Shown one piece after another: positions 30,901 through 60,051 of a stretch of 64,000 nucleotides of DNA. Source of the stretch: a virus; IMG/VR virus record IMGVR_UViG_3300022750_000001, positions 1-64,000 of that record. One strand, 5' to 3'. The notes under the pieces are model-generated. The model did no database searches. It had not been told where the DNA came from and saw nothing but the letters and a program-made list of their open reading frames with translations. Position 1 is the stretch's first letter. Each line of letters starts with the position of its first letter. Position numbers and translations under genes: made by a program.

Positions 30901-33900
30901 TGGCATCTCTGTAGCTACCGATACTGTTAGTGATTTAATTAAGAATGGTGTATATGTAAATGAAGGTACTAAACCAGTTAAGTTTCCTTATAACAAGATG
31001 TTTACTAAGTCTGCTGATACAGCAGGAGTGTTTGGTGCATTAGCTAGGAAGCTAGAGTTAATGGTAGCGGCTACTGATACAGATTTTGTAGAGAATGATT
31101 CTATTAGTCCATTTGAAAATACAACTGGCTCACTTGGTAAACTTGCCAATATAGAGTCTAAATATTCTTTAAATGTGACCACAAATTCTTTCAGAGATGG
31201 AACAAAATCTATTTATGGATATACTCCATCAAAATTTGCTACAAGCTTCTTAAATCAGCTTAAAACAGATTCCCAAATATTAGAAAATAAAAAGCAAATT
31301 GCTTTCGACCAAAATAGTTATCTGATTGATTTACTTCAATCTGATGAAGACTTTGCAGCTAAGTTTAATATAGACCATTTAGGCATCAATGCTTTTAAAG
31401 AATTAGGTAAGAAGTTATATGCAGATAATGAAATACAAGGTTTAGCTGATGCTGACCATGAGGCTACTAAGTTAGGTATGTTTCAGGATAAGCAACAGGG
31501 TGAAGTTAAATCCAAATCAGTAATAGTAGATGGTATTAAACATGAACTTCCTTTTAGAATGGCACGTATGTTTTTCCCAACTATGTCAGATAAGAAAGCC
31601 ATGCTTAGTATCTCTACTGCTGTATTGGAACTTAAAGCTAAACACCTAGAGTTTGTTGATGGTAGAACTATTATCTCACCTGAGATTAAATCATTCTTGT
31701 CTAGTCAGTTAATCGAGCCTGAGTTAAAAAGAATACTTGCACATCATAAGAGAGCAAAAGAATTAGGTCTTCATCCTAATCAAGTTAATAATCAAAAAGG
31801 TTATAACTTAGGGGCGCAGATATTTACTATGATACCTGCAATGAATAATCTAATGTACACTAAATCTAATGGTGAACAAGAGAGACTTATAGAGTATGTA
31901 GCTAACAATGCACAAGCTATAACTCCTGAGGTATACTCTAATATCTTAGGTGCTATTAGAGAAGATAGTAATCTACTATTAGACAATATGTTTAACCAAC
32001 TTGTAGAAGATAAGTTAGCTGTGTGGGAATCTAATGGTTACTTTACTAAGAATCAAGTTAATCAAATAACAGGAGTTAAGTTCTTAGATAATGCATATCT
32101 TAATAGTAAGCAGGGTACATTAGAAGACAAACTCAGAATAGGTGCATTTGATTATGTTATTAACTCTGCTCTAACTAATGCTAATATGCATATGTTAGTT
32201 GTAGGGGATGTTGCTAACTACTCCCAAGATAAAGCTTTCAAGAATGGTTTTGAGAAAGACTTTGATGGTAATGTATTACCTTACAAGCCTACTAACAATA
32301 GTAGATACTCAACTATTATGTCTGACATCATAGGTGTTAACTTAGGCAAACGCCTAGCTTTACTTATAGCCCCAGGTGCAACTATTGCTCAATCTAAGAA
32401 TGATAGGTATGTGCAGTTGTTTATCAAGGATAGGGTATCAGTATCTAGTAATATAGAATACTTAGTAGAATTATATAATGGTAGAGAAGCTTTAAGAGAT
32501 GCTCAAGCTGATATAGATTTAGCTAAAGCAGGTGATGAAAAAGCTAGAAGAGGTTTGATGAAGAAGTTTCCTCAATTAGATGCTTACTTTGATATTGAAT
32601 CTACAGATGCTCAAGAGTATACTACTACTAAAGAACATTTAGATATTCAGTTTAGACAAGGTAGAATATCTGTAGAGGAATACAATGACTTTACTAAGAG
32701 AATAAACAATCAGAAAGAGTCTGAAAGAAAAGGTCAGATGATTAATGCAGAAGATTACTTATCTGATGCTGAACTTAAGATGATATTCCAACCTATTAAA
32801 CCAGTATATACAGGTCAGATTAATGATGTGACTAATGGTAATAGTAGAATGATGTACATCAAATCATCTTCGTTTCCTTTGATACCTCAATTAACTAAAG
32901 CTTTTCCTGCCCTTGATGGTCTTAGGAGAAAGATGGAAGAAATTGAAACTTTGTATGGTAGAAATGTTAGAGCATCTTATGATACTGCTAATAAGGTTGG
33001 TGCTGTATTAGATAAAAACCAATTAGACATTTGGGATGCTCAAGGTAACTTTAGAGAAGACTCTATTAACCCACAAGATATTGTGGATAAACTTAATAGT
33101 GGAGATGATACTTCAGCCTTAGTATTAGATAGACAATTCTTTAGAATACAACAGGATGTACCATTCAAGTCTACTAAGCATGACCACATTGATAATGTTA
33201 CTGTAGGTACACAGATGATGAAGTTAATGTTTGGTGATGGTGTATCTAATATTACTGAGAAGATATTTACTTTTAATGGTCAGCCTATTAGTGGTAAAGC
33301 ATTACACTCTCATTATAATAAATCATTTGAAGGTTGGATTAACAATGAAAAATCTAAACTATATGAAAGCTTAGGTATAGATGAGTCTACTGGTAAGCCT
33401 GTAGATAAAGTTAAGACTGTACAGAAGTTACAAAACATGCTACAGTTAGAGGCTAAGAAAAGAGGTTTCCCTAAACAAGATATAGAAGCCCTAGAGTTAG
33501 ATATAGACTCTGATGCAACTAATCCTCAGTTCACTATACCTTTGTGGTTGTCTCCTAACAGTAACAGATATGAGGCACTACTAAATGCTATCGTAACTAA
33601 CAGATTATTAAACCTTAAACTGCCAGGAGCATCATTTGTTGCAGGTTCAGAAGAGGGATTTAAGTTTTCTGAAGATATTAACTCTGTAGACCAATCTAAA
33701 GTAATCTTTACTAATGGTTGGGTAGGGGAACTTAAGGGTACTAGGAATGAAGATGGTACTTTCAAGACTGCTCAAGTGTTAATGCCATCTAAGTTCAGAG
33801 ATAGTAATGGTAAACTATTAGACTTATTTAAACAAGAGAATGGTGAGTATGTATATGTAACTCAGAAAGATAATGGTACATATATGTTAAATCAGAATAT

Positions 33901-36900
33901 GATTGATAGTGAATTACTAAGTAATCCTTCCTTCCGTATTCCAACATCTTCACATGTGTCTCTATCTCAAATAGAAATAGTAGGTATACTACCAACAGAG
34001 GTTGGAGATTTAATGATAGTACCTAAGAACTTTACCAAACAAAAAGGTCTTGACTTTGATGTGGATAAAGAGAACATGTATATGTTACACCATATTGTTG
34101 ATTCTAATGGTAAATTAATTAGACTAGAGGATAACGAAGATGGTATCACCGTTGATAATATAGATGAAGCCGTAACTGAATTACAAGAGTTAATTGAATT
34201 ACAGAGACCTATTATTGAACAAAATGCTGATATTAAGAAACAAATCAGAGAGTATGAGAATGAAATAGCTGTATTAGAAGAGATGGATTTCCCATCTAAG
34301 GATGCTAAGAGATTTATTAAACAACTTAAAGAAGAGGTTAACTATAATGTAACTGCTAAAGACTTTAAGGATATGGTTAAGTTACTTAAGGATTATAAAG
34401 ACCTTAAGACTCAACTATATCAGAATGAGATTATCAAAGCATACTCTTCTGTATTATCATCAAGTGATGATAGAATACAAAGAAAGATTAATAAAGTACT
34501 ATCTACAGACTTTGCTGAAGAGCAAGCTAACTTAATTAGTGGTCTTACTAATCTTGAGGTTGATAGCTCTAACTTCACTATCTTATCTGATGAGTATCAG
34601 AAACAAAAGATGGGACTAGGTGCAGCAGGTAAATTAGGTATTGGAGTTTACTCTAATGCAGTTGTATTACATTCATTAATACAACAATCTACTGGTATCA
34701 GTTTAATGGAAAAAGTAGAAGTTGAAACACCTGATGGACCTAAATCTATATGGCAACCATATACTTTGAACTTAGGTGGTATTATATCTAATGGTAAACT
34801 AGGTAGAGAAGAAACTTTAGATGGAGATAGACGTTTAACTGATGTACTTGCTGAGAGACAAAATACTGCAACAGATAATGAGAAGTTACAGATTATGGGT
34901 AAGGCTCACATCAATGAGTTAACTATTAATGTTGACACCATTCTTTCACTCTTAGGGTATGATAAAAGTAAAGAAGCTGTTAATATTAACGGCATTAATA
35001 CTAAGATGTCTATTCCTTACTTACTATTATCTCAACCAATTATTAAAGATTGGGTTGCTTTAACCCGTAATACTAAATCTAATTTAGCAGGGTATAATCC
35101 TAATGCAGCTTCAGAGGTAGAAGCTAAGTTATGGGAGAAGTATAATTTCAAAGAGTTAAACAAAGAATTTGAAAACTATGATGAGAATTTAGTTACACTT
35201 ATCTCAGAACTAACTGCACAGAAACTAGTAGATAATATACTTGAGAATGGTAATGACTCTGAGTCACAGTTTGCTGTCTTAGAATTATTTAAACAATTAC
35301 AAGCTTATGGAGAAGACATCACAGGTCTACAATCTAAATTGAATATACAACGTTCAGGTCTAGGTAAATCCACTTATGAGATGTTATCTAAGTATGATAA
35401 TGTTAAATCATTAGCTTATAATCCTAGGATTAGTAATATAGCAAACTTAGTAGGTGAGTATTTAATCAATGATGATTATAACCCTGATGACAGACAACAA
35501 TTAGTTGAAGAGGGTTATACTATATTTGATGATGATAAATTCTCAGCACCATTTGCAGTTAAGCCTAATACAGTTACAGGTAGTCTTGTAGTACAAGCTG
35601 CTAAATCAGGTTATGAATTATGGAATGATTACTTCCCACATAACAATGGTAGCTTGAAACAAGTTATGACTGAGATTATGGAGACTATGTCTAGTGAGGA
35701 GTTAAGTGAATCTAAGAAACTTAAAACTCAACATGAAGTATTTGCTGAGTTAAAGAAATACTTATACTCATCAGGTCAACTAGGTATCTTTAAAGGTAAT
35801 CCTCAAGCAGAGAGATTTAGATTATTCTTTGATAAAGAGGGTAATCAATCTTTGGCTAGTTACTTATCAGCTTTCTTAAGGTCAGACCATGCTAATAAAG
35901 ACTTTCTAACTAATAATAAATTAATTAGTGGTTTCACTTTTGGTTTAGAGCAAGGTAAGTTACCATCTTTAGTTAAATATAACAATGCTAGAGGTGAGGA
36001 CTTTAATGAAGAGTATAAGTACTTAGCTTTAGTTGAGTTAATGGATAAGAACTTACCAATAGCTGACTATAACGGTCAACCCTATACTACTAGAATGTTA
36101 GCTAAAGATTTAATTACTTATAGCTTTATCCAAGGTGGAGTACAAGAAGCTATTGAGTTTGTTAAATATATACCAGTAGCTTATCTTAAACAGATGGGGT
36201 TTGCTGATGTAACTCAAGCTTGGCAGAAGTCAGCTATAGGTCAATTCAGAGTTGATATATGGCATCAAATGTTAGGAGTTAAGTCAGAAGACTCACCTAT
36301 ACCAACTCCATCAAGATTTGTTGCTCAATACTTCCAAAACAATCCTGCTAAGTTACCTAAGTTGACTACAGAGGATATGGATAGTAATAGCTTAATTTAT
36401 GGTAAGGAAAAAACTTTAGAAGACCTTCAATCATTTAAGATTAAAGACCCTAAAGACATTAGACCTATGGTAGCTATATATAATACTAAAGTACCTAAAG
36501 GTTTCTCTAAGTTACAGATATATACTTGGAATGGTAAACAGTATAATAGAACAGCTAACTTAGGTGTGTTTGGTATGGCTGAGTATTCAGTTAGAGATAA
36601 TAATGTTGAGCCATTAATTGATGCTAAGTATGTAGTACCAACTGATGTTGCACCTGCTATACAGAATAATCCTATTCCGTTAGGGCAAAGTGACGTATTT
36701 GATTTAGCTAAGGGTAGTCTTACTAATAGTTTAGGTATGATGGTAGACAATGCTGACCATTACTATCCTGGGATTTCAGAGGTAGCTAAAGCATTAACTC
36801 CTTATATAAACAATAACACTAAACTCGAAATAGGTATAGTTAATGGTGGAAAATCAAGAGGTGTTTTCTTAGGGAACACAATCACTATAGATAAGGGCTA

Positions 36901-37570
36901 CCTTTCAAATCCTAAGGTTTCTAATGAAATGGTGGCTAGGACATTGTTGCATGAAACTACCCATTCGTTAGTGTCACCAGTGCTTAATGAGTATTTCAAC
37001 TCTAATGGTTCTATCATTAAGCCGTTGTCCCCTAACGTAGAGAGATTATCCCGACTCTTCTCTGAAGTTCAGACTAAGCTTGGACCTCAACTAGAAGAGT
37101 TTAAACAATGGTATGCTACTAACCCAGGTACAGTTAGAACCGAAGCTGATAGAATACTATATGCAGGTATGGATATACATGAGTTTACTACCATGATTAT
37201 GTCAGAACCTGCACTGCAAAAACTATTAGCTGATACACCTAGCAGTACAGCAGGTAAGAGTTTACTACAACAGTTTGTAGATACTTTGAAAAGAGTATTA
37301 TCAGAGTTAGGTTTAAACTTTAAAGAAGATAGTATTACAGCACAAGCTATGGATGCAGTCTTCTCAATTATTCAAGATGAAGTTCAAAAACCTGCCGTAA
37401 CTACAAATCCTTTTAGTAATTTTGGAATAATGGAATCATCTGAGGATGAAAATCTTGGCAAATTACTAGATGATGAAGATGCTAAAGATAACTCAAAAGA
37501 TGAAACAGGGTTCTTAGACCCTAACACTATAGACAATAGTGAAGTAACAGAGGAAGATTGTATATTCTAA
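24947..37570 (+). CDS. giant virion-associated protein with two-barrel (DPBB) RNA polymerase core and C-terminal HExxH zincin motif
   Basis: Uninterrupted 4207-aa ORF. aa ~2885-3050 match the beta-prime/Rpb1 catalytic barrel: LKLPGASFVAGSE, AQVLMPSKF, FRIPTSSHVSLSQIEIVGILP and GLDFDVDKENMYMLHH. D3036, D3038 and D3040 map to nt 34052-34066. HETTH lies at aa 4002-4006 (nt 36950-36964). Gly-zipper-like hydrophobic stretches occur near the N-terminus. Confidence 0.65.
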   Translation: MGKQHILDLLEGDNTPPSNPLKPISQANPYGSKQFLDSQKVGSSVAEARSGKKAKDYIAYIPQVDIDNPNLDAIRATNQTGAEQFGNSLAQFGTGVAGGFITSLGTSLDIDQSIGTIKGVQQEFGNAVTEFGKTLMENAKEDNPIYQTEQGEVNPGDSGWWAQMFADTGLSAGIMAYSALETIAIGAATAGIGEAAEAALMSKRVQTFKNMLGGITESGNLASKMRRNATAFGVFNRHNEGMMEAADSFETTYKDLLDKKVPEEQAKEAAAKAAQDTYLGNLPLMALDILQFRAMTFNPISGGANGGIVESVLSGIKNPKVAQGIGHTFGMLSEGGEEYWQALVQDESKHSADVLAGRDDKSSFGERFSEFNRKGDTWNATISGIFGGAILGGISHGIGKATESRNTKELNKNYDDFIKSSTGIGVEMADDIRAAEETGDEVHANNLRRKMGVTKALQAVHLDNMKDDSKAFDSYTGYLNDVLGAVQSNDTDFLKENGLEGSEDFIASNFPSFIADAREIQSIYDTVKVNNAREAVPNIVFRQYALNNLNNEKVSVDQKIGDLQAQMPDLSNISNPGKEINDLQVFQSLANSKLKFLNSQLKSEKLTQVQKDGLTAQVEDLNARLTEAEEQLAIQKEIASNLSPRQQILDNEVLKSVNLNAQLKKLTAQKIDIESEITKTRKEMNTWSDPVFQKKNAQERLYQVIEDVDNLSDLNNFEASTIQQGLATDDINRRIQAKRKELNAQDEATRLKNTPSVTATPQAGTAPINNILGATTEVEEEEQPAAGTGLFGNVLPADEEPANAPVVKPTINPIRSQLGATIVSNDVADLFGSPIAETDPRKKALSELPYSMTEDAVMVDNIPRLKSDVDRINAEFDAKEVKPLDNSEVSSKATVVEDEGFSWFDPSVLNDNLSDEQKENVRQKISDYYTSMAAELGRKPSFKELVEDLMLHTSPEQVEKQFNAIRLGWELNNYANTNFNQVYNELFGTRKSKAKDFFDYIEESKITEQELKEEQQVLTEKIEQEQAAPLQIEETETGQKVYKHLQPFKTVESTLKFAHLSVPYERFFNENEQGEIEIDYRYTSDSLNQGQYVDSKELMNPNLYQPGTKLDVKVPTESNDMLVAQWSEDYEKRDSISFSKWAVGKDKNSDEYVGKVPMIIYNSEGKGVAFVHDVDWYNPTNVGYGEKPGQQKQLIEQSRKELLEFRRGVLENGSSSITVTEKRPGTMITIPMNQPTITVAQANPQALLGYTNSNGNLVTNEGIINFEDLVNAQDLSIGHRYDARQVGLVDGRKQYVASKVMYEYIDGEAKSSIVMAIKTYMAQLDTKEEFAKASEIKVIRDSIKNQTNLDLFDQADLQTYLGNFIQVFNSNAKTNKGIADDINSREGVPDGTPFLSISEGRVVMGLKNGKLNPKDESNGFALYLHPQNLTKSNSALLANIAATNLARIFRGQSIGNGQFVDDYLGKMKQNMTSKQLETNPNVATIGLDNKVTPVGDYSTYLKGKLKTNVKSFDLGDGNYATFVQPVIHYSYSGQSTSLGNNIETEPSPREVAKEIAKSITKNIDTTASTIAAIQADMENFENLGLTPEAMQALRELGGAKFDPDYAKLTDDIVQSIKVKLTKVEDLNIVDRNTVVQFIANEVMNKIDPVKRTTLNKKDLEADIRKTFGDIISPKVAVVDRQLANLNKLYETGNYPALKEVIDQFNNLRGNAEVLKKNWNFLINEAFEDYISKFTGISITMSRDQKTVDIEVKDEEEVAEINEQEDGQDTDEAIVIDAADQREKDYTRESVEDNGKQSASYLLKRFLSQIPNYDTNGSTKKGYMGLTTYPGFDYYYTLIGSILSSPNQVDSNFDAMMDRLEQHAETKRWVKDVVDKMKASDEQMKNTFMYNFNRETLSMKFVMTSFNKKTESYKLKVYDTNANEVLRVIQSQWRENFKQSPLVMVNGDNYGINKVTAQEMLDQFNNWVTSKQLPAEVEAQKWLEKFGISVATDTVSDLIKNGVYVNEGTKPVKFPYNKMFTKSADTAGVFGALARKLELMVAATDTDFVENDSISPFENTTGSLGKLANIESKYSLNVTTNSFRDGTKSIYGYTPSKFATSFLNQLKTDSQILENKKQIAFDQNSYLIDLLQSDEDFAAKFNIDHLGINAFKELGKKLYADNEIQGLADADHEATKLGMFQDKQQGEVKSKSVIVDGIKHELPFRMARMFFPTMSDKKAMLSISTAVLELKAKHLEFVDGRTIISPEIKSFLSSQLIEPELKRILAHHKRAKELGLHPNQVNNQKGYNLGAQIFTMIPAMNNLMYTKSNGEQERLIEYVANNAQAITPEVYSNILGAIREDSNLLLDNMFNQLVEDKLAVWESNGYFTKNQVNQITGVKFLDNAYLNSKQGTLEDKLRIGAFDYVINSALTNANMHMLVVGDVANYSQDKAFKNGFEKDFDGNVLPYKPTNNSRYSTIMSDIIGVNLGKRLALLIAPGATIAQSKNDRYVQLFIKDRVSVSSNIEYLVELYNGREALRDAQADIDLAKAGDEKARRGLMKKFPQLDAYFDIESTDAQEYTTTKEHLDIQFRQGRISVEEYNDFTKRINNQKESERKGQMINAEDYLSDAELKMIFQPIKPVYTGQINDVTNGNSRMMYIKSSSFPLIPQLTKAFPALDGLRRKMEEIETLYGRNVRASYDTANKVGAVLDKNQLDIWDAQGNFREDSINPQDIVDKLNSGDDTSALVLDRQFFRIQQDVPFKSTKHDHIDNVTVGTQMMKLMFGDGVSNITEKIFTFNGQPISGKALHSHYNKSFEGWINNEKSKLYESLGIDESTGKPVDKVKTVQKLQNMLQLEAKKRGFPKQDIEALELDIDSDATNPQFTIPLWLSPNSNRYEALLNAIVTNRLLNLKLPGASFVAGSEEGFKFSEDINSVDQSKVIFTNGWVGELKGTRNEDGTFKTAQVLMPSKFRDSNGKLLDLFKQENGEYVYVTQKDNGTYMLNQNMIDSELLSNPSFRIPTSSHVSLSQIEIVGILPTEVGDLMIVPKNFTKQKGLDFDVDKENMYMLHHIVDSNGKLIRLEDNEDGITVDNIDEAVTELQELIELQRPIIEQNADIKKQIREYENEIAVLEEMDFPSKDAKRFIKQLKEEVNYNVTAKDFKDMVKLLKDYKDLKTQLYQNEIIKAYSSVLSSSDDRIQRKINKVLSTDFAEEQANLISGLTNLEVDSSNFTILSDEYQKQKMGLGAAGKLGIGVYSNAVVLHSLIQQSTGISLMEKVEVETPDGPKSIWQPYTLNLGGIISNGKLGREETLDGDRRLTDVLAERQNTATDNEKLQIMGKAHINELTINVDTILSLLGYDKSKEAVNINGINTKMSIPYLLLSQPIIKDWVALTRNTKSNLAGYNPNAASEVEAKLWEKYNFKELNKEFENYDENLVTLISELTAQKLVDNILENGNDSESQFAVLELFKQLQAYGEDITGLQSKLNIQRSGLGKSTYEMLSKYDNVKSLAYNPRISNIANLVGEYLINDDYNPDDRQQLVEEGYTIFDDDKFSAPFAVKPNTVTGSLVVQAAKSGYELWNDYFPHNNGSLKQVMTEIMETMSSEELSESKKLKTQHEVFAELKKYLYSSGQLGIFKGNPQAERFRLFFDKEGNQSLASYLSAFLRSDHANKDFLTNNKLISGFTFGLEQGKLPSLVKYNNARGEDFNEEYKYLALVELMDKNLPIADYNGQPYTTRMLAKDLITYSFIQGGVQEAIEFVKYIPVAYLKQMGFADVTQAWQKSAIGQFRVDIWHQMLGVKSEDSPIPTPSRFVAQYFQNNPAKLPKLTTEDMDSNSLIYGKEKTLEDLQSFKIKDPKDIRPMVAIYNTKVPKGFSKLQIYTWNGKQYNRTANLGVFGMAEYSVRDNNVEPLIDAKYVVPTDVAPAIQNNPIPLGQSDVFDLAKGSLTNSLGMMVDNADHYYPGISEVAKALTPYINNNTKLEIGIVNGGKSRGVFLGNTITIDKGYLSNPKVSNEMVARTLLHETTHSLVSPVLNEYFNSNGSIIKPLSPNVERLSRLFSEVQTKLGPQLEEFKQWYATNPGTVRTEADRILYAGMDIHEFTTMIMSEPALQKLLADTPSSTAGKSLLQQFVDTLKRVLSELGLNFKEDSITAQAMDAVFSIIQDEVQKPAVTTNPFSNFGIMESSEDENLGKLLDDEDAKDNSKDETGFLDPNTIDNSEVTEEDCIF

Positions 37571-51708: not shown

Positions 51709-52186
51709 GTTCCATTTGTTTTTGATAAGCTTTTACTAATTTTAAAAAATCTTTGAAAGTCATGTGAACCATAGCATCATAGTCTGACCTGCGATACTGG
51801 TCTTCATCCTTTCTCTTGTGATGTAGAACAGCCTTTGGTAAAGTGTGTATTATATCATAAGCAGGATAGTTTTCAACTAACTTAGCTTCCATAGCTTTTA
51901 ATATGGAAGTTGGTGTCATGTTTTGTTGAAACCCTGCCTTGATTTGCAGGTTAACAGGAATATGAGTTAAATCTACCTTACAGGAGTCTAACATCTTATT
52001 CCCATTTCTGCTTGTCTTACACATAGGAAATCCTTCTGCCTGAAATATCAGAGCATACTCTCTCTCTATACCATTACCATAAGCTTTGTTCTTAACACCT
52101 TGAGGTATATTCCTTTTGACTTTGACTTCAAATTCAAAAACCTCTTCTTTTTCTTCTTCGTTACTGTAGTTCTCTTGCGATTCCAT
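51677..52186 (-). CDS. possible restriction-endonuclease-fold protein (Holliday-junction-resolvase-like)
   Basis: 169 aa. GIEREYALIFQAEGFPMCKTSR...KVDLTHIPVNLQIKAG loosely fits the E...D...(E/Q)xK pattern of Hjc-like resolvases. The call is weak. Confidence 0.3.
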   Translation of the reverse strand: MESQENYSNEEEKEEVFEFEVKVKRNIPQGVKNKAYGNGIEREYALIFQAEGFPMCKTSRNGNKMLDSCKVDLTHIPVNLQIKAGFQQNMTPTSILKAMEAKLVENYPAYDIIHTLPKAVLHHKRKDEDQYRRSDYDAMVHMTFKDFLKLVKAYQKQMEHDIQSKQGGN

Positions 52187-52835
52187 TTATTACATCATTA
52201 GTTAAACCATCTAAGTACTCTCTTCTTGCTGCTAAAGTAGGAAACTTGTTTTGTAATTGTATTGGATTCCAACACCATTGATTAATATTATCAGTGATAA
52301 TAGTATCAACACCCTGTTGCCACAAGATGTTGAGTACATACTTCTTTAAAATATTATAAAAGGTTTTGTGTTCGGGTAACTCAAGTTGACGATTAATGAT
52401 TGCGACTAACCCCTTAGGGTCTAAATCTCCATTCCTAAGATTACCTCCAAAGAGATATGACTTCTTATAGCATAGTGTATATAAGAATAGTGGTTGCCCA
52501 CTTACGTATATAAATACATTTTGCTTAGAAGTATAGTATGTATAATCTCCCTTATTGTAACCAAAAGATAAACCACCAGTTGCAATAAAAGCTCTAAAAT
52601 GATTAAGCTTATTACTTGAACCAAGTCTAGGCTTAGGGAAATTATATATACAAAATCTATAGTCTGCCTGTTGCTTAAAGTCTGCAAGAGGTATTCCATG
52701 AATAGGGATATAGTCGTTCTCAATAGAAGAAGACCTAATTAACCAGTCACTAGCAGACACCCTACTTGGGATGTAACTACCCTGTAAAATCTGTGTAGGT
52801 TGAATTAGATTATTAGCTTCTTCTGACATTAACAT
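52161..52835 (-). CDS. hypothetical protein (last gene of the Ubl/JAB/E1 block)
   Basis: 224-aa ATG ORF starting 10 nt after the E1-like gene stop. No motif recognised. Confidence 0.55.
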   Translation of the reverse strand: MLMSEEANNLIQPTQILQGSYIPSRVSASDWLIRSSSIENDYIPIHGIPLADFKQQADYRFCIYNFPKPRLGSSNKLNHFRAFIATGGLSFGYNKGDYTYYTSKQNVFIYVSGQPLFLYTLCYKKSYLFGGNLRNGDLDPKGLVAIINRQLELPEHKTFYNILKKYVLNILWQQGVDTIITDNINQWCWNPIQLQNKFPTLAARREYLDGLTNDVINGIARELQ

Positions 52836-52845
52836 ATTGTCCTCC

Positions 52846-53589
52846 TTACTGTGTTAAAAAGTCTAGTGGTATAAGATACTCCCAAGTGTAAGGTACTACT
52901 CTACTAGCTTCACCAGTTTTAACATTGGTGTAGTGATTAGTGAAGAAACCTACCATGTGAGATGCTATCATCATAGCACTATGTGATGTTTGTTTTGCTG
53001 TACATACTGCATCTTCAGCTTCAGAACTTGAAAATAAATGATTAGTCCTGTAGTCTTCAATGTTGGCTGCATCATCTCCCCTAAGACAGAAAATCTGTAG
53101 CTGTTCAAATGTAAGACGACCATCAATGTAGATAGCATTTGGATTACCCTCATTGGCAGCTATCCAGTTGTGAAAGTAAAGATTCCTAGCTTCCATATTA
53201 TCAAATCCTGATAACATGAACTCATGCGCCATAGAGTCTTTATCATAAGCTGAATTGTAAGCATAGATAGGACTACCTGCAAAGTCTAGTATATTAACTG
53301 CTAATGCACCTACTTTACTAACACCTATATCCCCTCTCTTACAAAACTGCCCTGCCATATTATGTTCTTCAAATAAATCGAAGTCCCATACATGACATAC
53401 AAAGCCTGCTCTAACCATAGCTAAAGCTAACCAAGATGAAATTCCTCCCGCACCACCTATAAACACTTCCACTTCTCCTTTTTTAGGGAACCAAGGCGCA
53501 CCACTAAATCTGCTAAACTTAGCTTCTACGATTTCTTTAGGAGCAGTAGTATCTTCTACTACTGCCTCCTGATTTAATTCTTCACTCAT
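52846..53589 (-). CDS. ThiF/MoeB/E1-like adenylyltransferase
   Basis: 247 aa. Rossmann nucleotide loop VFIGGAGGISSWLALAMVRAGF, then WDFDLFEEHNMAGQF (cf D.D.V..SNL.RQ). FDNMEARN (cf TDN...R) and a C-terminal AVCTAKQTSHSAMMIASHMVG segment are colinear with ThiF. No E2 or rhodanese fusion. Confidence 0.65.
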   Translation of the reverse strand: MSEELNQEAVVEDTTAPKEIVEAKFSRFSGAPWFPKKGEVEVFIGGAGGISSWLALAMVRAGFVCHVWDFDLFEEHNMAGQFCKRGDIGVSKVGALAVNILDFAGSPIYAYNSAYDKDSMAHEFMLSGFDNMEARNLYFHNWIAANEGNPNAIYIDGRLTFEQLQIFCLRGDDAANIEDYRTNHLFSSSEAEDAVCTAKQTSHSAMMIASHMVGFFTNHYTNVKTGEASRVVPYTWEYLIPLDFLTQ

Positions 53590-53590
53590 T

Positions 53591-54811
53591 TTAAGAGATT
53601 ACTTCTAAATTTTGTAATTGATTACCAAACTGTTTCATCATACTGATAACATCATGTATGAAGTGTGCATAAGCAGGATTATCTTCATACTCCTCAATAT
53701 GCTCTAGGAAAGTATCAGTAGCATCTATGAAATCTTCCATTGATGTTTCAGTAGTCCCAGGTCTTAACTCAAAGAACTCATCATACCAATCAATAAACTT
53801 ATCTACTATGAAAGAGGCTACTTCCATACCTGCTCCATACTGAGTTTGTTCTGCTAAGTCATCTAATGCTGATACTAAATCATCATCAGGAACTGATACA
53901 GAATATCTAAGTACATAGGCTGCAAACTGCTCATCCTGTGTTACTAGTACTTCTTCCTTACTAGCTAATTTAAGCGAAGATTTTCCATTTGGGTAAATAT
54001 CCTCTGACCCTTTTCCCCAACCCGTTTTTGTTCCACCACCATTTCCGCTGTGGAACTGATTGTACTGCTCCTGCTGTTGTTGGTTGAACTTTTGTTGACT
54101 CGGTTGGGGTAAGTACTTTTTTTCTTCAGCAAGTTTAGCTGCCGCTGCTGCTGCCCTATTAGCAGATAACTCTACCACCTTGGTAAGTCTCTCCTTATAA
54201 GTATCTTCTATCTCTACTTTAACTTGAGGTGTATGAATATCACATTCGTACTTCAATAGTACTTGGTCATCATTCTTGATACTAAAACTAACATCAAACT
54301 CTTCCCCATTCTCATCCTTAGTTTTATAAGTATAGTTTGGAGTAGACCCAATAGAAGCGACTAATGCAGTCATTTCCATAAAGTTATTGACAATTAATGA
54401 CAGATAGAAATTATGAACTAAAGAATTTTCATGTAATTCATCATCATCTGTACCTGAGAAGAAAACTCTCATCTTATTGTGAGAATGGATGTGACCTACT
54501 TTAGCAAAACCCCATACTTCAGGGTCTTCCATGATTTTATTCATGTGGAAGTCTGCTACATCTGCATCAAACTCGTATGAAGTATAGGTAGCTGTACCCT
54601 TATCCATCAAGAAGATGTCAAGTATATCTATAGAGAGGTTTGCTTTATCTCTCATACTACCATTAAGTTTGTAAAATAGTACTCCTGACCATTCTACTTC
54701 GTAAATTTGTTGACAAGTATATCTAATCTTATCAAAAATTTCTTGGCTGATGTGCAACTGCATACGCTCTGCTTGCAATATCGGTCTCAATTTTTTGTTT
54801 ATTGGCTGCAT
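53591..54811 (-). CDS. JAB/MPN (JAMM) metallopeptidase with orphan C-terminal domain
   Basis: 406 aa. Complete JAMM signature: Glu in YEVEWSGV, then H109-S-H111-x7-S119-x2-D122 (GHIHSHNKMRVFFSGTDDDE, nt 54446-54487). A Gln-rich linker and an acidic domain of about 150 aa follow. An alternative ATG at 54763 would shorten the overlap with the upstream gene from 80 to 32 nt. Confidence 0.7.
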   Translation of the reverse strand: MQPINKKLRPILQAERMQLHISQEIFDKIRYTCQQIYEVEWSGVLFYKLNGSMRDKANLSIDILDIFLMDKGTATYTSYEFDADVADFHMNKIMEDPEVWGFAKVGHIHSHNKMRVFFSGTDDDELHENSLVHNFYLSLIVNNFMEMTALVASIGSTPNYTYKTKDENGEEFDVSFSIKNDDQVLLKYECDIHTPQVKVEIEDTYKERLTKVVELSANRAAAAAAKLAEEKKYLPQPSQQKFNQQQQEQYNQFHSGNGGGTKTGWGKGSEDIYPNGKSSLKLASKEEVLVTQDEQFAAYVLRYSVSVPDDDLVSALDDLAEQTQYGAGMEVASFIVDKFIDWYDEFFELRPGTTETSMEDFIDATDTFLEHIEEYEDNPAYAHFIHDVISMMKQFGNQLQNLEVIS

Positions 54812-56651
54812 ATTCTAATTTATCTTTAATGTATTTTACTACATTGTTGTTAATGTAAAAAACCTGTCTGTTTATATTCTCTTCTGACACTTGAGTGTCT
54901 TCTAAGACTTCGAAGTATTGATTTTCTCCCCTAAAGAGAAGAGGATAAGTAGCTGCCGTATCTTCTCCGCCTAAACTTTCGAATCTCTCGGAAGCAGGCA
55001 TTGAATATTGTTGTGAAGCTGAAACTTTATGATATAATCCTTGAGCATCTTTAAAGTATAATAACCCCCTAACAGGAATACGATTATGTAACGTATTTAG
55101 ATAGTCATACTCACCTACAGTATCAAATATCCTACAGAAATCTTGTAATAGGTCATCATCTTGTATAGTAACTACACCATCAGGAGATATATTCCAATTT
55201 AATCTTTTAGGTACATTAGTAGACCTTCTCTTTATCATAAGTGCTTTGTAGTATCTCTCTACATAATCATAGCCATCACATATCTCTGTACCTACACTGG
55301 CACCTAATACGTTAGCTATCCTTACATAAGGTCCTCCCTCTAAGGATTCCCAAACAGTATAAGCTTCTAATTGGAATAATAGCATCTGAAAGGTGTACAT
55401 ATCAATACCTAAATCACTACCTAGTAATGATATAGTCTGTGAAATTTCACCTGAACCTAAACAGCATCCATTAAAAGTCATATAAGAAGATATAGTGCCT
55501 CTAGCCCTCATGTGACTAAAAGCATATTGGGCAGCTACCTCTCTTGAGGTAGGACTTGTTCTCATACCTTCTAAACCTTTGCCATTGAATTTCAAAGGTT
55601 TAATAGAATACTCTATACCATTAACCTCATCATAAGGTCTAAATACAGTACTATCACCACAATTATTAGATACAAGTTCTAACATATTATCTAAACCACC
55701 TCTGAAGCATATCCTATCTGAATATGCACTACCTCTACCTACTAGTTTAAACTTATAGTATAGATTCGTGAGTACCATTGACATACCTCTGTCATTACTA
55801 ACTGTAACTTGAGGGAACTTAATGATAATATCAATTTGTGATATGAATTTAATGCTAGGTATAGGTCTTGTCACAGTTGGAGAATCTGCATCTTCTATCC
55901 TACTCCAATCATAGTTATCCCAATACCACTGTATTGTATCTCCTTCCACTCCAAAATAGCAACCATAAGGTTGTATATCTCTCGATGCACGATTATAATT
56001 AGGATTATCAAAGTGACCTCTCATATCAAACTTACTTAGCCTAAGCTGTAAGTCCCAATTGCCTGGGTATGTAGATTCACAACAATCTTTAATAATCTGT
56101 ATTTGGGTGTATGTTTCTAAGGCTAACCAACCTTCTTGTACTTTAGAGTATAACCACTCATTATCTAGCATCTTCTGTTGAGTATTATACTCATTCTCTT
56201 CTAATTCTAGACCGTAGTTACTTACTTCATATACTTGTATTTGTCTTAATCCATTTGTTGATAGATTGACTGGTTGTTCCTCAAAATCCGCAAAGGGGTT
56301 CATAGCTTCTACTTGTGCTACCTCATTATCTTCACTATGTAGCATATCATCAAGAGTCTGTCTCATACGTTCAGATTCTTCAGGTGATACTGTAGGTGCA
56401 GGTGATACTAAATCTGTGAATACAGCTGTTGTAGAGTCTGGAGAATATGGGTCATAACCTACTGCGTAACTATTACCACTAATAAAGACACCAGTACCAG
56501 TACTAGTTGTATATTCAATACCTGACCTGTTCTCATATCTAAAAATAGGTCTACCATTATTATCAAAGTCTCCTGTATCAACTCTAACTGGCTCTTCTAT
56601 ATTAACAGGTCTGAATAAATCTTCGGTGTCATCTTCTATTATAATATCCAT
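54732..56651 (-). CDS. hypothetical 639-aa protein (between the Ubl-like gene and the JAB gene)
   Basis: Long ATG ORF with an acidic N-terminus and a Cys/aromatic-rich core. No motif could be assigned with confidence. Confidence 0.6.
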   Translation of the reverse strand: MDIIIEDDTEDLFRPVNIEEPVRVDTGDFDNNGRPIFRYENRSGIEYTTSTGTGVFISGNSYAVGYDPYSPDSTTAVFTDLVSPAPTVSPEESERMRQTLDDMLHSEDNEVAQVEAMNPFADFEEQPVNLSTNGLRQIQVYEVSNYGLELEENEYNTQQKMLDNEWLYSKVQEGWLALETYTQIQIIKDCCESTYPGNWDLQLRLSKFDMRGHFDNPNYNRASRDIQPYGCYFGVEGDTIQWYWDNYDWSRIEDADSPTVTRPIPSIKFISQIDIIIKFPQVTVSNDRGMSMVLTNLYYKFKLVGRGSAYSDRICFRGGLDNMLELVSNNCGDSTVFRPYDEVNGIEYSIKPLKFNGKGLEGMRTSPTSREVAAQYAFSHMRARGTISSYMTFNGCCLGSGEISQTISLLGSDLGIDMYTFQMLLFQLEAYTVWESLEGGPYVRIANVLGASVGTEICDGYDYVERYYKALMIKRRSTNVPKRLNWNISPDGVVTIQDDDLLQDFCRIFDTVGEYDYLNTLHNRIPVRGLLYFKDAQGLYHKVSASQQYSMPASERFESLGGEDTAATYPLLFRGENQYFEVLEDTQVSEENINRQVFYINNNVVKYIKDKLEYAANKQKIETDIASRAYAVAHQPRNF

Positions 56652-56683
56652 AACTAATTAAATTAAGTTGGTAAATAAATTAA

Positions 56684-56713
56684 ATAGTGTAGCCTAATAA
56701 AAGACTACACTAT
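56684..56713 (-). terminator. hairpin (probable partial terminator) after the Ubl/H1-like gene
   Basis: 9-bp stem ATAGTGTAG (56684-56692) / CTACACTAT (56705-56713) with a 12-nt loop. On the minus strand it is followed by TTTAATTTAATTTATTT. It lies in the 88-nt gap between the 216-aa and 639-aa genes. Confidence 0.45.
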
Positions 56714-56739
56714 TCTTTATCTATTAGGTTAACTTAATG

Positions 56740-57390
56740 TTATTTGATACCAGTTAAGCCTCTAGCAATCTCTCTTGCTTCTTTATCTAAAGCATTAACG
56801 TCGATAGCAGTTTCTACCGCCTTAGATGGAGATTTAACTACTTCTTTAGCTACTGATTTAGCAGCATCTTTGGCAGATTTTTTTGGTGCTGCAACTTCTT
56901 TGCTTTCTTTTGCAGGTGCGATAGCTTTAGTATCTTTTTTGGTTACTTTAGCTACCTTAGCTACTGCTTTTGGTGCAGCCTCAGGTTTCTTAGGTGCTTT
57001 GTAAGAGATTAAGTTCTCTCTGTTGACATCAGATGACTTCGTAGTCCAACTTTTGTCAGCACTAAAGTGTTCTTTACCTGCGTTTGGGTGATTAGCAATA
57101 GCCTCTTTAATAGCGGCTTTAACTTCGGTATAAGACATAGCATTAACTTGCTTTGCAGTTAAACCTGATTTAGTTTTAACAGGGTACAAGAATACGTTGA
57201 TGTCACCTTCACCGATTTTAGCATCAGGGTGTTCTAAAGTATTTCTTGTTGAAGCATCAATAACCTTCATGCCATTGTAGTTAACTCCTGCTTTTGAAAG
57301 GTCTTTTTGTAATTCTGCCCAATTTGTAGCTGAAGTTTCAACTTTCTTACCTACACCTGTACCTACTGTGTGAACTGTTACTTTTCTCAT
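56740..57390 (-). CDS. ubiquitin/ThiS-like beta-grasp domain fused to a Lys/Ala/Pro-rich histone-H1-like tail
   Basis: 216 aa. aa 1-76 (nt 57163-57390) follow the beta-grasp pattern, ending KIGEGDINVFLYPVKTKSG (cf ThiS VQDGDQILLFQVIAGG). aa ~133-195 read KKPEAAPKAVAKVAKVTKKDTKAIAPAKESKEVAAPKKSAKDAAKSVAKEVVK. Confidence 0.55.
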   Translation of the reverse strand: MRKVTVHTVGTGVGKKVETSATNWAELQKDLSKAGVNYNGMKVIDASTRNTLEHPDAKIGEGDINVFLYPVKTKSGLTAKQVNAMSYTEVKAAIKEAIANHPNAGKEHFSADKSWTTKSSDVNRENLISYKAPKKPEAAPKAVAKVAKVTKKDTKAIAPAKESKEVAAPKKSAKDAAKSVAKEVVKSPSKAVETAIDVNALDKEAREIARGLTGIK

Positions 57391-59163: not shown

Positions 59164-59229
59164 ATCTTTACCCCTAGAAAACAAGAATAGCAAAGTTCTT
59201 AGGAAACCTTGCTATTCAATAAGATTAAA

Positions 59230-60051
59230 TTACCAACCCGCAGGTTTTGGTTGTGCAGGAGCAGCACCCACAGCAGCAGCTTGTGCTTGACCGCCTATAG
59301 CTGAACCATCTGTAGCAGTTTCTTCTCCATCTTCTCTCTGCTCATTAGCAAAGTTAGATTTAACGAACCAACCACTTCTTACAAATGGATGAATATTACC
59401 TTTACCATCTACATACATTAATGCATTAGTATCAGTATCAGCAGGAGACTCTTTGCGAACTTCTTTCCATTCACCTAAAGTACCATCAGCATTTAAAGGT
59501 TGAACTGCTCTACATAACCAAGCACCATACTTCATAGTCTTAGGTACTTGTAAGAATGTTCTTGTGTTCTCACCTTGTACTTGCCATTGATACTGCATAA
59601 ATACATCTAGGGGTACTAACTGACATCCTGCAGGAAACATAGATGCTACTGCATTACAGTATGATGCAAAACTATTTAAGTGACCTGCTTGACCTGCTGC
59701 CTGAAAAGCTGCTTGAATTTGCTCCTTAGTAAGGAAAGCCCTTAAAAGGTGACTAATAATACCATTGAAAGTATCAAAAGCCTCAATCATCTTAGGATGA
59801 TTAATGTCTGTGATAATTACATTGTTTTCTCCGTAAGCTTGAGTTACTGGGAACATTCTCATACTAGTTTCAGAACCATTAATGGTAAGTACAATGTCTA
59901 AAGCCTCTGCTGCTTCTCCACCTTTACCACCATTAGCTGTATAACCGAACTTACTTAAGAATGTTTTACCTGCATTTAACCCAAATGCTCTAGTGATTAC
60001 GCTTACCTGACTCTCGTCATCTGCATAACCATATCCACCTACTTTTGACAT
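59230..60051 (-). CDS. putative ssDNA-binding / annealing protein (positional)
   Basis: 273 aa, located between the primase and an ATPase/helicase cluster. Gly/Ala/Gln-rich flexible C-terminal tail ending in an aromatic residue (...AQPKPAGW). No secure OB-fold motif could be read. Confidence 0.3.
   Translation of the reverse strand: MSKVGGYGYADDESQVSVITRAFGLNAGKTFLSKFGYTANGGKGGEAAEALDIVLTINGSETSMRMFPVTQAYGENNVIITDINHPKMIEAFDTFNGIISHLLRAFLTKEQIQAAFQAAGQAGHLNSFASYCNAVASMFPAGCQLVPLDVFMQYQWQVQGENTRTFLQVPKTMKYGAWLCRAVQPLNADGTLGEWKEVRKESPADTDTNALMYVDGKGNIHPFVRSGWFVKSNFANEQREDGEETATDGSAIGGQAQAAAVGAAPAQPKPAGW

Follow-up and report, generated by a model that had tools for sequence, protein, structure and literature searches.

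A JAB peptidase, an E1-like adenylase and a C-terminally capped carrier make up the logic of the sulfur pathways QbsCDE and CysO/Mec+. Known sulfur carriers have a Gly-Gly end, and single-Gly ends are typical of the conjugated ubiquitin-like proteins (Ubls) UFM1, ATG8 and ATG12. Bil (bacterial ISG15-like, BilABCD) is a host antiphage defence operon with the gene order Ubl-E2-JAB-E1 (PMC11601596). A precedent for JAB cleavage of a Ubl fusion precursor right after a conserved Gly is found in the Bub (6E/DUF6527) system, where BubAB is cut at G229 (PMC11601596). In phages lambda and T1, tail assembly protein I carries a Ubl with a conserved Gly and a C-terminal domain, and the adjoining TAPK JAB is predicted to release the Ubl (PMC1779556). 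Here, we analysed a five-gene cassette of a crAss-like phage, a description of which was not found in the literature searched. The results point to a widespread, hitherto undescribed Ubl tagging system that is run by the phage rather than by the host.

The window, which is the whole stretch of DNA analysed, covers positions 1 to 64,000 (64,000 nt) of the IMG/VR record IMGVR_UViG_3300022750_000001. The ORF check placed five co-directional, tightly packed genes (A to E) on the minus strand, exactly where the first-pass annotation of this DNA had put them (Table 1). Gene B and the JAB gene C overlap by 80 nt. The cassette belongs to a crAss-like phage and lies within its replication/recombination block, with nucleotide and DNA metabolism genes as neighbours, in agreement with the earlier placement in the replication arm of a lytic-looking phage. 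The five-gene block was syntenic in FpV4, crAss001, DAC15, further phages and 80 IMG/VR contigs, which is above chance expectation. Genes A, B, C and D were all present in 82 of the 93 loci examined, and gene A homologues stood upstream of B in 88. Co-conservation across relatives, which the same annotation had proposed to check, was thus confirmed. The commonest order was A-B-C-D (71 loci), the rest being mostly split domain hits or truncated contigs, and the order Ubl-B-JAB-E1 was kept in nearly all 93 loci. On balance, we favour the view that the five genes work together as a single cassette, which makes, matures and activates a phage Ubl in the replication phase of infection.

Table 1. Positions of the cassette genes and their parts in the window.
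Feature	Positions	Strand	Description	Basis
Gene A	56740..57390	minus	Putative Ubl precursor, 216 aa: beta-grasp, invariant Gly76, variable C-terminal extension	ORF, homologues
Ubl domain of A	57163..57390	minus	Residues 1-76, ending K-T-K-S-G76	AF2 and Foldseek
Gly76 codon	57163..57165	minus	Predicted JAB cleavage / E1 activation site	Invariant column
Helical middle domain of A	57004..57156	minus	Residues 79-129, common to a subset of relatives	AF2
Lys/Ala/Pro-rich tract of A	56791..57000	minus	Residues 131-200, disordered, lineage-specific	Composition and pLDDT
Hairpin in A/B spacer	56682..56715	minus	Terminator-like, 14-bp stem, 6-nt loop	
Gene B	54732..56651	minus	Conserved phage-specific protein, 639 aa, candidate Ubl transferase	Cys/His enzyme-like signature
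Conserved core of B	55302..55889	minus	~Residues 255-450: N286, H380, C397, G399, E435, S436, P441	
Gene C	53591..54811	minus	406 aa: N-terminal JAMM/JAB domain (~residues 17-215), uncharacterised C-terminal domain	
Gene D	52846..53589	minus	247 aa, minimal E1/ThiF-type adenylation domain, conserved Cys196	
Gene E	52161..52835	minus	224 aa, fifth member, fast-diverging, without catalytic signature	Position conserved

Residues 1-76 of protein A had been read as a beta-grasp, and structure prediction agrees. Protein A matched phrog_15560 at 1.2e-12 and had no match at the sequence level in Pfam or PDB. In the AF2 model, residues 1-70 had a pLDDT of 84-91, with strands at 2-8, 14-19, 41-45 and 64-70 and a helix at 24-33, which is the beta-beta-alpha-beta-beta order expected of a beta-grasp of ~70-80 residues. 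The top Foldseek matches in the PDB were ubiquitin, NEDD8 and ISG15, and B. fragilis ubiquitin and the 65-residue chain 5ztb_E, from a sulfurtransferase complex, were also matched (prob 0.99-1.0; TM 0.5-0.67 normalised to the target). Direct reading of the sequence gave TKSG for residues 73-76, and the junction residues 73-77 had a pLDDT <50. G76 was the sole invariant column when 60 diverse homologues were aligned. Among unique Ubl domains, 75 of 77 terminate in [S/A/G]-G (one D-G), typically as K-x-K-S-G. Counted over 75 unique domains, the residue preceding the terminal Gly was mostly Ser (56), followed by Ala (12), Gly (6) and Asp (1). A therefore has the conserved C-terminal Gly of Ubl modifiers and carriers; it is always capped, and cleavage is predicted.

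The same Gly could belong to a sulfur carrier, in which Gly76, once trimmed free by JAB and adenylated by E1, would become a thiocarboxylate and B, via Cys397, would thiolate a nucleotide, nucleic-acid base or cofactor needed in phage DNA replication. The setting amid nucleotide and DNA metabolism genes would suit such a role, and JAB, E1 and a C-terminally capped carrier together also follow the logic of QbsC/D/E and CysO/Mec+. A further point in its favour is the Foldseek match to 5ztb_E, presumably the sulfur carrier TtuB. However, the residue before the Gly is Ser, Ala or Asp in 69 of the 75 domains. We consider this reading rather unlikely, and the evidence from proteins D and B that bears on it is given below.

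The sequence after the Gly ranged from 1 to 267 residues, was never absent, and showed no kinship between lineages. Such a variable, never absent and unrelated cap is a hallmark of Ubl precursors that undergo processing. Together with the invariance of G76, this lends comparative support to the earlier proposal that JAB would trim A after G76 and that E1 would then activate it. In the window, the AF2 helices of the middle domain lie at residues 79-83, 87-100, 102-109 and 120-129 (pLDDT 63-79), and an HMM of residues 79-129 matched only 28 of the 93 loci. K and A occur 18 times each and P 6 times in residues 131-200, whose net charge is +10, and residues 136-198 are predicted to be disordered (pLDDT <50). 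The histone-H1-like tract noticed by the first-pass annotation is therefore present, but it does not hold as a conserved DNA-binding feature. It is lineage-specific, tails are mostly acidic (36 of 62) with a few basic ones, and a single SAP domain match was obtained among 60 caps, which argues against a conserved DNA-binding partner. One cap carried an L7/L12 CTD.

The caps also bear on whether processing is the whole function, that is, whether the Ubl acts in cis as a chaperone or timer from which JAB frees a C-terminal cargo, with no conjugation and with E1 and B acting elsewhere. Tail assembly protein I of lambda/T1, a Ubl, linker and C-terminal domain beside a JAB without an E1, would be a model for this (Iyer et al. 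2006, PMC1779556). The helical domain and Lys-rich tract of the A tail in the window could likewise be a basic, possibly DNA-binding cargo. However, 12 of 75 caps are only 1-6 residues long and leave no cargo for JAB to free, although those loci still have B, JAB and E1. Across lineages, conservation is seen for the Ubl and Gly76 but not for the caps, which are non-homologous. In addition, 82 of 93 loci encode an E1 whose adenylation site is conserved throughout, from which we argue that the Gly carboxylate is in use. Processing alone is accordingly an improbable account of the cassette.

Protein C contains E40 and H109-S-H111-x7-S119-x2-D122 by direct reading, which is the complete JAMM/MPN+ motif (E...HxHx7Sx2D) with its zinc ligands and catalytic Glu. 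E40, H109, H111, S119 and D122 were conserved in 81 unique sequences, and the complete JAMM site described earlier is thus borne out. The match to Pfam Prok-JAB was below threshold (E 0.003; 17.9 bits against a gathering score of 25), and the PADLOC JAB model (CBASS-type) was matched at 9e-5.

Protein D contains GGAGGIS, D130-N-M-E-A-R135 and C196 by direct reading. It matched phrog_15670 at 6e-68 and Pfam ThiF at 29.1 bits (gathering 28.1; E 6.7e-7). The residues conserved in 78 sequences were R27, G46, G48, D69, D71, N77, Q81, K92, D130, R135, D156, R158 and C196. These results uphold the claim of a minimal ThiF/E1 adenylation domain, since every nucleotide and Mg residue is conserved and the GxGxxG loop, the ATP/Mg2+ residues and the Arg finger of the E1/ThiF/MoeB type are all found. 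C196 occurs in 75 of the 78 sequences (the other three have gaps), 66 residues past D130; the PDB alignments span residues 28-137 only. This distance is similar to the one published for the catalytic Cys of UBA5, ThiF and MoeB, and C196 may be the Cys of the crossover loop. The D profile matched UBA5 best in the PDB (2.7e-14, 56.7 bits), with 69 further E1-family chains; the next matches were TcdA, MccB, MoeB, ThiF, Uba1, Cap2 and BubCD, the last at 1.6e-4. For the sulfur carrier, the single-sequence NCBIfam search is favourable, with the ThiS-adenylating ThiF model as the best match of D (2e-10, well under the model cutoff). However, the profile favours UBA5 over MoeB and ThiF (~1e-8, ~38 bits). 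A tblastn search of D against 72,556 plasmids returned chromosomal-type thiF only.

Proteins C and D could alternatively serve counter-defence. JAB would work mainly as an isopeptidase of the Cap3/BilC kind and remove host Ubl or cGAS-type conjugates, and the phage Ubl and E1 would be decoys that saturate Bil/CBASS enzymes. The CBASS-type JAB match of C fits this, as do the match of D to NCBIfam 6A-MBL cap2_3 (1.3e-6) and its weak matches to the PADLOC Cap2-type E1-E2 models. However, the PADLOC and NCBIfam matches are of generic superfamily level and well under the family cutoffs. A lone deconjugase has no need of a Ubl precursor, E1, B and E that are co-conserved and keep their order at almost all loci, and the cassette is spread over very diverse phages (~3,000 B clusters). 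We therefore regard counter-defence as very unlikely.

The B family is phage-only and very large, with 3,083 representative clusters (50% identity) at E<=1e-3. The core residues N286, H380, C397, G399, E435, S436 and P441 showed little or no variation, both in 82 unique sequences and in 150 representatives (50% identity clusters); their codons were checked in the window. N286, H380, C397, E435 and S436 were invariant across the 82 sequences, and C397 was the single invariant Cys. Position 378 is Phe in the window and His in 75 of the 82 relatives. The AF2 model of B had a pLDDT of 75.7 (core >90) and a pTM of 0.68. It had no PDB match by Foldseek (best E 0.55), and in BFVD it matched its own family only. 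B was also considered as an E2 with a UBC fold, an HPN-type flap and a catalytic Cys, and no such kinship was detected: when the profile of 150 sequences was aligned to four canonical E2s by hhalign, the prob was 1.2%, and the Prok-E2 Pfam model had no match. The order of elements in B (helix, long strands, His, Cys, helices) is faintly E2-like, a likeness of order and no more. The absence of a recognisable E2, noted before, was thus confirmed by fold search and by hhalign. Because neither fold nor profile searches detected an E2 or E3 likeness in B, its candidate role as a transferase is proposed on two grounds, the invariant residues and the gene position. As for sulfur transfer, neither B nor E had a sulfurtransferase match in Pfam or NCBIfam; B has its one invariant Cys, and no rhodanese, cysteine desulfurase, PP-loop or Fe-S motif was present in the cassette.

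In 83 loci, D was followed by an ORF of 90 aa or more, and 55 of these joined one cluster (phmmer 1e-5), to which E of the window belonged at 1.3e-26. Only one Pro was conserved at >=80% in this family, and no relatives of E were found in Pfam or PDB. The first-pass annotation had called B and E orphans. Both are conserved members of the cassette, B from a huge family with an enzyme-like Cys/His signature and E from a fast-diverging family that has none.

The hairpin said to separate the Ubl gene from the other four genes is real (minus strand, 56715-56682), and the folding energy of the A/B spacer was -27.3 kcal/mol. Terminators made of a hairpin and a T-run occupied the corresponding site in FpV4, crAss001, bajarodcaudo virus, cr85, cr128, cr126 and DAC15. 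All eight phages having a spacer there showed an intrinsic terminator after gene A, which supports the suggestion that gene A may be expressed in excess.

The functional cassette that we favour would work as follows. Protein A would be a precursor, consisting of a 76-residue beta-grasp Ubl and a dispensable, lineage-variable C-terminal cap, and the JAMM peptidase C would cleave it after the invariant Gly76. The minimal E1 D would then adenylate the freed Gly carboxylate and probably load the Ubl onto Cys196. From there the Ubl may move to the invariant Cys397 of B, which would join it to a protein target and thereby do the work of E2/E3 without homology to them. E may serve as an adaptor or specificity subunit with no catalysis of its own. 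The Ubl would be held in excess over the enzymes by the terminator that follows gene A, and JAB could possibly also reverse the conjugation. We tentatively propose that crAss-like and related Bacteroidota phages encode Ubl conjugation of this kind, in which a minimal E1 and a new-fold B replacing E2/E3 covalently tag host or phage proteins during genome replication. If true, this would be the first Ubl ligation system in a virus of bacteria, and B would represent a new class of Ubl transferase with an Asn/His/Cys/Glu/Ser centre.

The PRTRC cassette (ParB-related, ThiF-related) of plasmids and ICEs resembles the phage cassette in having a ThiF-family protein and the JAB-like protein A, and PRTRC protein A was the nearest NCBIfam family for six phage JABs. 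Membership failed, as the matches to PRTRC_A (best E 0.007, from those six JAB relatives) and of D to PRTRC_ThiF (4.5e-4) were weak and well under the cutoffs, and ParB was absent. PRTRC B, C, E and F had no match among the 50 proteins scanned, and phage A, B and E matched none of them. Type II CBASS shares an E1-superfamily adenylation domain and a JAB isopeptidase (Cap2/Cap3), with weak PADLOC/NCBIfam matches. However, Cap2 joins an E2 to an E1 and conjugates the C-terminus of the CD-NTase, and CBASS is host defence without a separate Ubl or B- and E-like proteins. The sulfur-carrier JAMM systems (QbsCDE, CysO/Mec+/MoeZ, MoaD-MoaE/DRJAMM) have a capped or fused beta-grasp, a Gly-exposing JAMM and an E1-like adenylase. 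They differ in their Gly-Gly ends and a recognisable acceptor or rhodanese, whereas 68 of 75 phage domains end in Ser-Gly or Ala-Gly. Judged by its sequence, A would not be a ThiS/MoaD-type carrier, with Gly-Gly in 6 of 75 domains and no sulfur-transfer domain detected in the cassette.

The Bub system shares the Ubl fusion precursor, the JAB cut after a conserved Gly and a minimal E1 adenylation domain. The Bub cargo, however, is the E2 itself, whereas the phage cap is variable and often has 1-6 residues. Bub E1 and E2 lack a catalytic Cys and form Tyr/Ser oxyesters, whereas phage D has the conserved C196 and B the invariant C397. With these Cys residues, and with no DUF6527/PF20137 match in the five proteins or their relatives, the cassette was not assigned to Bub. 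Bil has the same order as the phage cassette, in which B stands as the second protein, and a Ubl with a C-terminal Gly. The differences are that Bil is a host operon whereas the cassette lies in lytic crAss-like phages, that BilD is a multi-domain E1 (IAD-AAD-CYS) whereas the phage E1 has 228-250 aa and a single adenylation domain, that BilB is a UBC-fold E2 whereas B shows no detectable UBC similarity, and that the phage cassette has the extra fifth gene E. Membership in Bil failed because D is a single 247-aa domain and B no detectable E2; what is shared is the gene order and the Ubl/JAB pairing only. Lambda and T1 likewise carry a phage Ubl beside a JAB, but theirs belongs to the tail-assembly module and has no E1 or B-like protein, whereas the present cassette belongs to the replication module and always has an E1.

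The window comes from a crAss-like phage. Its minus strand carries a five-gene cassette, A to E, comprising a putative ubiquitin-like (Ubl) precursor (A), a conserved phage protein (B), a JAB/JAMM peptidase (C), an E1/ThiF adenylation domain (D) and a fifth member (E). The co-directional, packed genes described in the first-pass annotation matched five minus-strand ORFs exactly. The minus-strand block runs through a DnaB-like helicase, a Sak4-like protein, a primase, UDG and the cassette to an ExoVIII-like nuclease. The plus-strand structural block includes a giant virion protein of 4,207 aa, with ORFs of 1,589 and 1,561 aa on either side. Near 42.3-43.5 kb the coding strand switches and the GC skew changes sign. 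No tRNA genes were found within the 64-kb window. By DNA, the closest cultured relatives are Flavobacterium psychrophilum phages of the genus Fipvunavirus, which are ~71% identical in parts of C and D.

Cassette genes and other features of the window
Feature	Position (nt)	Strand	Description
A	56740-57390	minus	ORF, 216 aa
B	54732-56651	minus	ORF, 639 aa
C	53591-54811	minus	ORF, 406 aa
D	52846-53589	minus	ORF, 247 aa
E	52161-52835	minus	ORF, 224 aa
Giant ORF	24947-37570	plus	4,207 aa; phrog_16227, virion structural protein
Hairpin between genes A and B	56715-56682	minus	14-bp stem, 6-nt loop

According to record annotation, the identical five-gene order, adjoining primase and UDG, is present in FpV4, crAss001 (Gp79-Gp75), DAC15, cr85, cr111, cr128, cr126, Dulem virus 41 and bajarodcaudo virus 1. 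These records label D 'thiamine biosynthesis protein', C at most 'metalloprotease domain' and the remainder hypothetical. Cassette regions were compared at 93 loci, including 80 IMG/VR loci retrieved via the B family, and all were scanned with an HMM of each component. Ubl, B, JAB and E1 occurred together in 82/93 loci, and most remaining loci end at contig edges. The order Ubl-B-JAB-E1(-E) was found in essentially every locus, so the block proposed as one module is co-conserved in related phages. The arrangement was identical around P0210, P0303 and P0330, three B homologues chosen among the matches of the representative search. A pattern scan of bacterial and archaeal genomes (one genome per species, 185,579 species) gave a single locus; it lies on a Flavobacteriales MAG contig of 54 kb, and the count is a lower bound because the pattern was narrow. 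In 72,556 plasmids, tblastn with D returned nothing but an ordinary thiF. Judged from these searches, the cassette looks phage-specific. A distant ThiF relative, with 28.6% identity over 70% of D, was seen in Xanthomonas and Erwinia jumbo phages of ~228 kb (PV764602.1, PV764601.1, OQ603359.1 and OQ603353.1).

Genes B and C share 80 nt (54732-54811), where the end of B lies over the start of the JAB gene. Overlaps of ~20-125 nt at this junction were also observed in FpV4, crAss001, cr85, cr111, cr128, cr126 and Dulem virus 41. This recurrence suggests that translation of the two genes is coupled. Alternatively, the JAB start may be mis-called, as an internal Met17 is present.

No sequence-level match between protein A and Ubl families was found. 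Pfam, NCBIfam, PADLOC and PDB-sequence searches with its N-terminal domain gave nothing usable, and a word-indexed search for homologues, with A as the only query, recovered nothing but itself. The alignment of A used here was the version with intermediate sequences; a 43-sequence MAFFT version misaligned the window protein past ~residue 60. AlphaFold2, run with a 22-sequence alignment, modelled residues 1-70 at pLDDT 84-91, with strands at 2-8, 14-19, 41-45 and 64-70 and a helix at 24-33. The junction (73-77) was of low confidence, residues 79-129 formed a helical domain (pLDDT 63-79) and residues 136-198 were disordered. Foldseek matches in the PDB were almost only ubiquitin, NEDD8, ISG15, the parkin Ubl, the B. 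fragilis ubiquitin and a 65-residue sulfurtransferase-complex chain (5ztb_E). TM-scores, normalised to targets of ~75 residues, were 0.5-0.67; probabilities were 0.99-1.0 and E-values modest (2e-3 to 1e-2), as would be expected of a domain this small. These results support the beta-grasp proposed for the N-terminus of A.

Residues 73-76 of A are TKSG, in agreement with the domain end read at first pass. The 93 loci gave 77 unique Ubl domains, 75 of which terminate in S/A/G-G (one D-G), typically K-x-K-S-G. The length after this Gly varied from 1 to 267 residues and was never 0. Seven A genes end one residue past the Gly, usually with Lys, and five more end after 3-5 residues. G76 was the sole invariant column in the 60-sequence A alignment. 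At the sequence level, a Gly that never varies, sits where the fold ends and is always followed by a variable, dispensable cap is the signature of a Ubl precursor.

The H1-like tail was partly upheld: the Lys/Ala/Pro tract is present in the window, as a feature of this lineage and not of the system. The extensions showed no relatedness between lineages and were acidic in 36/62 cases and basic in only 6/62; that of the window is basic (+12). As they are unrelated and mostly acidic, with one weak SAP match, a conserved H1/SAP DNA-binding domain was ruled out. In the uncultured phage cr126_1 (L007:2398-3324), the post-Gly tail of A includes the C-terminal domain of ribosomal protein L7/L12 (Pfam PF00542, 5e-12), so that a phage Ubl is here followed by a domain that binds translation factors. 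On one IMG/VR phage contig (L034:5622-6613), B is preceded by a tandem pair of Ubl genes; each Ubl ends K-N-K-A-G and has a short tail (68-77 residues). The 90%-identity cluster of the cr85_1 protein A (L004:3056-3712) holds 346-aa variants beside the 218-aa form, which suggests alternative starts or an extra domain in some genomes.

The Ubl gene had been described as separated from the other four by a hairpin, and this hairpin is real. The A-B spacer folds as a strong hairpin in 8/8 phages with a spacer, followed by a T-run in 7/8. The tail of the window hairpin is weaker and A/T-mixed. Such a conserved element downstream of the Ubl gene, acting as a terminator or attenuator, would fit the first-pass idea of a Ubl made in excess over the enzymes. 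A second terminator-like 14-bp hairpin (59185-59217, minus strand), with the same GAATAG start as that after gene A, sits with the primase gene on one side and an ORF at 59230-60051 (phrog_15339, unknown function) on the other. The two may be a shared regulatory element.

The JAMM site of C is present as E40 and H109-S-H111-x7-S119-x2-D122. Its five residues were kept in 81 unique sequences, apart from gaps from truncated ORFs and one H111 substitution. D carries the adenylation motifs GGAGGIS and D130-NMEA-R135 together with C196. A profile of 13 D sequences matched 70 E1-family chains in the PDB. UBA5 was the best match (2.7e-14), followed by TcdA, MccB, PaaA, MoeB, ThiF, Uba1, Cap2, the NEDD8 and SUMO E1s and BubCD. 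R27, G46, G48, D69, D71, N77, Q81, K92, D130, R135, D156, R158 and C196 were conserved in 78 D sequences. The spacing of C196 from D130 is similar to that seen for the catalytic Cys in UBA5, ThiF and MoeB, a likeness in spacing only, as the alignments to PDB chains reach no further than residue 137. With the E1 ATP site and the JAB metal ligands conserved in the alignments, as the first-pass annotation had anticipated, C and D both look catalytically competent.

B and E had both been regarded as orphans, which was not borne out for either. When 1.84 billion representatives (50% identity clusters) were searched with a B profile and without an index, 3,083 B-family clusters matched at E<=1e-3, of which 2,721 passed E<=1e-10; a narrower search with a six-sequence B alignment gave 5 proteins. 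H380, C397, G399, E435, S436 and P441 were invariant in 150 representatives, and N286 was also essentially invariant in 82 locus-derived sequences. Residue 378 (55518-55520), next to the invariant H380, is Phe in the window versus His in 75/82 (consensus Y-x-H-S-H). An obligatory HxH metal site in B is weakened because the window has Phe378. The window B has a 250-residue N-terminal extension (residues 1-250, 55902-56651) and a low-confidence insert (306-352, 55596-55736), common only to the homologue P0123 (88% identical, from a contig of 97 kb); most proteins in the family have 370-500 aa.

AlphaFold2 modelled B from 150 sequences at pLDDT 75.7 and pTM 0.68, with the core above 90. No PDB structure matched this model in Foldseek (best E 0.55, prob 0.02), and in BFVD the only matches were uncharacterised crAss-like or podovirus proteins of B's own family. 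The B profile search against PDB sequences was empty, Pfam, NCBIfam, PADLOC and PDB-sequence searches gave nothing usable, and hhalign against four canonical E2 sequences gave 1.2% probability. B was thus ruled out as an E2 at the level of detectable homology, and the cassette has no recognisable E2, as first noted. Alignment and model point to a conserved Cys/His protein of unrecognised fold that is probably enzymatic. Of the cassette's components, B is in our view the best candidate to accept or transfer the Ubl, because it has an invariant Cys, lies between the Ubl and JAB genes (the E2 slot of Bil) and co-occurs strictly. It may be a new kind of Ubl transferase, given its invariant Cys/His centre, its large, confidently modelled family and the lack of a PDB structural relative.

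After D, an ORF of at least 90 aa was present in 83 loci, and 55/83 of these formed one single-linkage cluster (phmmer 1e-5). The family matched the window E at 1.3e-26 and the crAss001 E at 2e-6; an initial E HMM was too narrow (13/93 loci). One Pro was the sole residue conserved at >=80%. No relatives were found in Pfam or PDB, and NCBIfam and PADLOC searches gave nothing usable. The alignments indicate a conserved, fast-evolving and apparently non-catalytic fifth member.

The best-supported reading of these sequences and models has four steps. C would cut A after G76. D would then adenylate G76, probably forming a thioester on C196. The Ubl would pass to C397 of B and then to its target, and E would adapt or target the reaction. 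In Bub operons, a JAB domain cleaves the BubAB Ubl-E2 precursor directly after a conserved Gly (PMC11601596), a direct precedent for the first step. A system for processing only is disfavoured, because B, JAB and E1 are retained even at loci where the cap is just 1-6 residues long. The Ubl could instead serve in sulfur transfer, since JAMM, E1 and a capped carrier also make up QbsCDE and CysO/Mec+. We mildly disfavour this reading because the Ubl ends in Ser/Ala-Gly and not Gly-Gly, positions -2 and -4 are basic, D is closer to UBA5 than to MoeB or ThiF, and no sulfur-transfer domain was found. This is mild evidence for conjugation and not decisive.

To our knowledge, prokaryotic Ubl conjugation has been described to date either as a weapon that hosts turn on phages (Bil, type II CBASS) or from operons of unknown role (Bub). 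The cassette would be the mirror image of host defence, a full Ubl precursor, protease and E1 set in lytic phages. Its carriers include the cultured crAss-like phages crAss001 and DAC15 and fish-pathogen phages (FpV4), and the crAss-like group is abundant in the human gut. With ~3,000 B-family clusters at 50% identity, the cassette is widespread. A literature search on crAss-like or other phages with ThiF or ubiquitin-like terms, in which coverage of subscription journals was incomplete, found no description of it. The cassette is a predicted phage-borne Ubl-E1-JAB system, with a minimal E1 and a new-fold partner that would replace the E2. It offers a candidate function for genes now annotated 'thiamine biosynthesis protein' and 'hypothetical', and because cultured phage-host pairs exist, the hypothesis is directly testable.

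The gene order of BilABCD is Ubl-X-JAB-E1 (PMC11601596), and the cassette has the same order. It would work similarly to Bil and Bub but belongs to neither. Compared with Bil, it has no UBC-fold E2 and no multi-domain E1; compared with Bub, it has no DUF6527 and carries a conserved Cys that Bub lacks. The only ties to PRTRC are weak JAB and ThiF matches, and neither these nor the plasmid search supported membership. Phage lambda TAPI/TAPK combines a phage Ubl-linker-domain protein with a JAB (PMC1779556). Unlike the cassette, it is without an E1 and lies in the tail module; the idea of a phage Ubl-linker-domain plus JAB is common to both.
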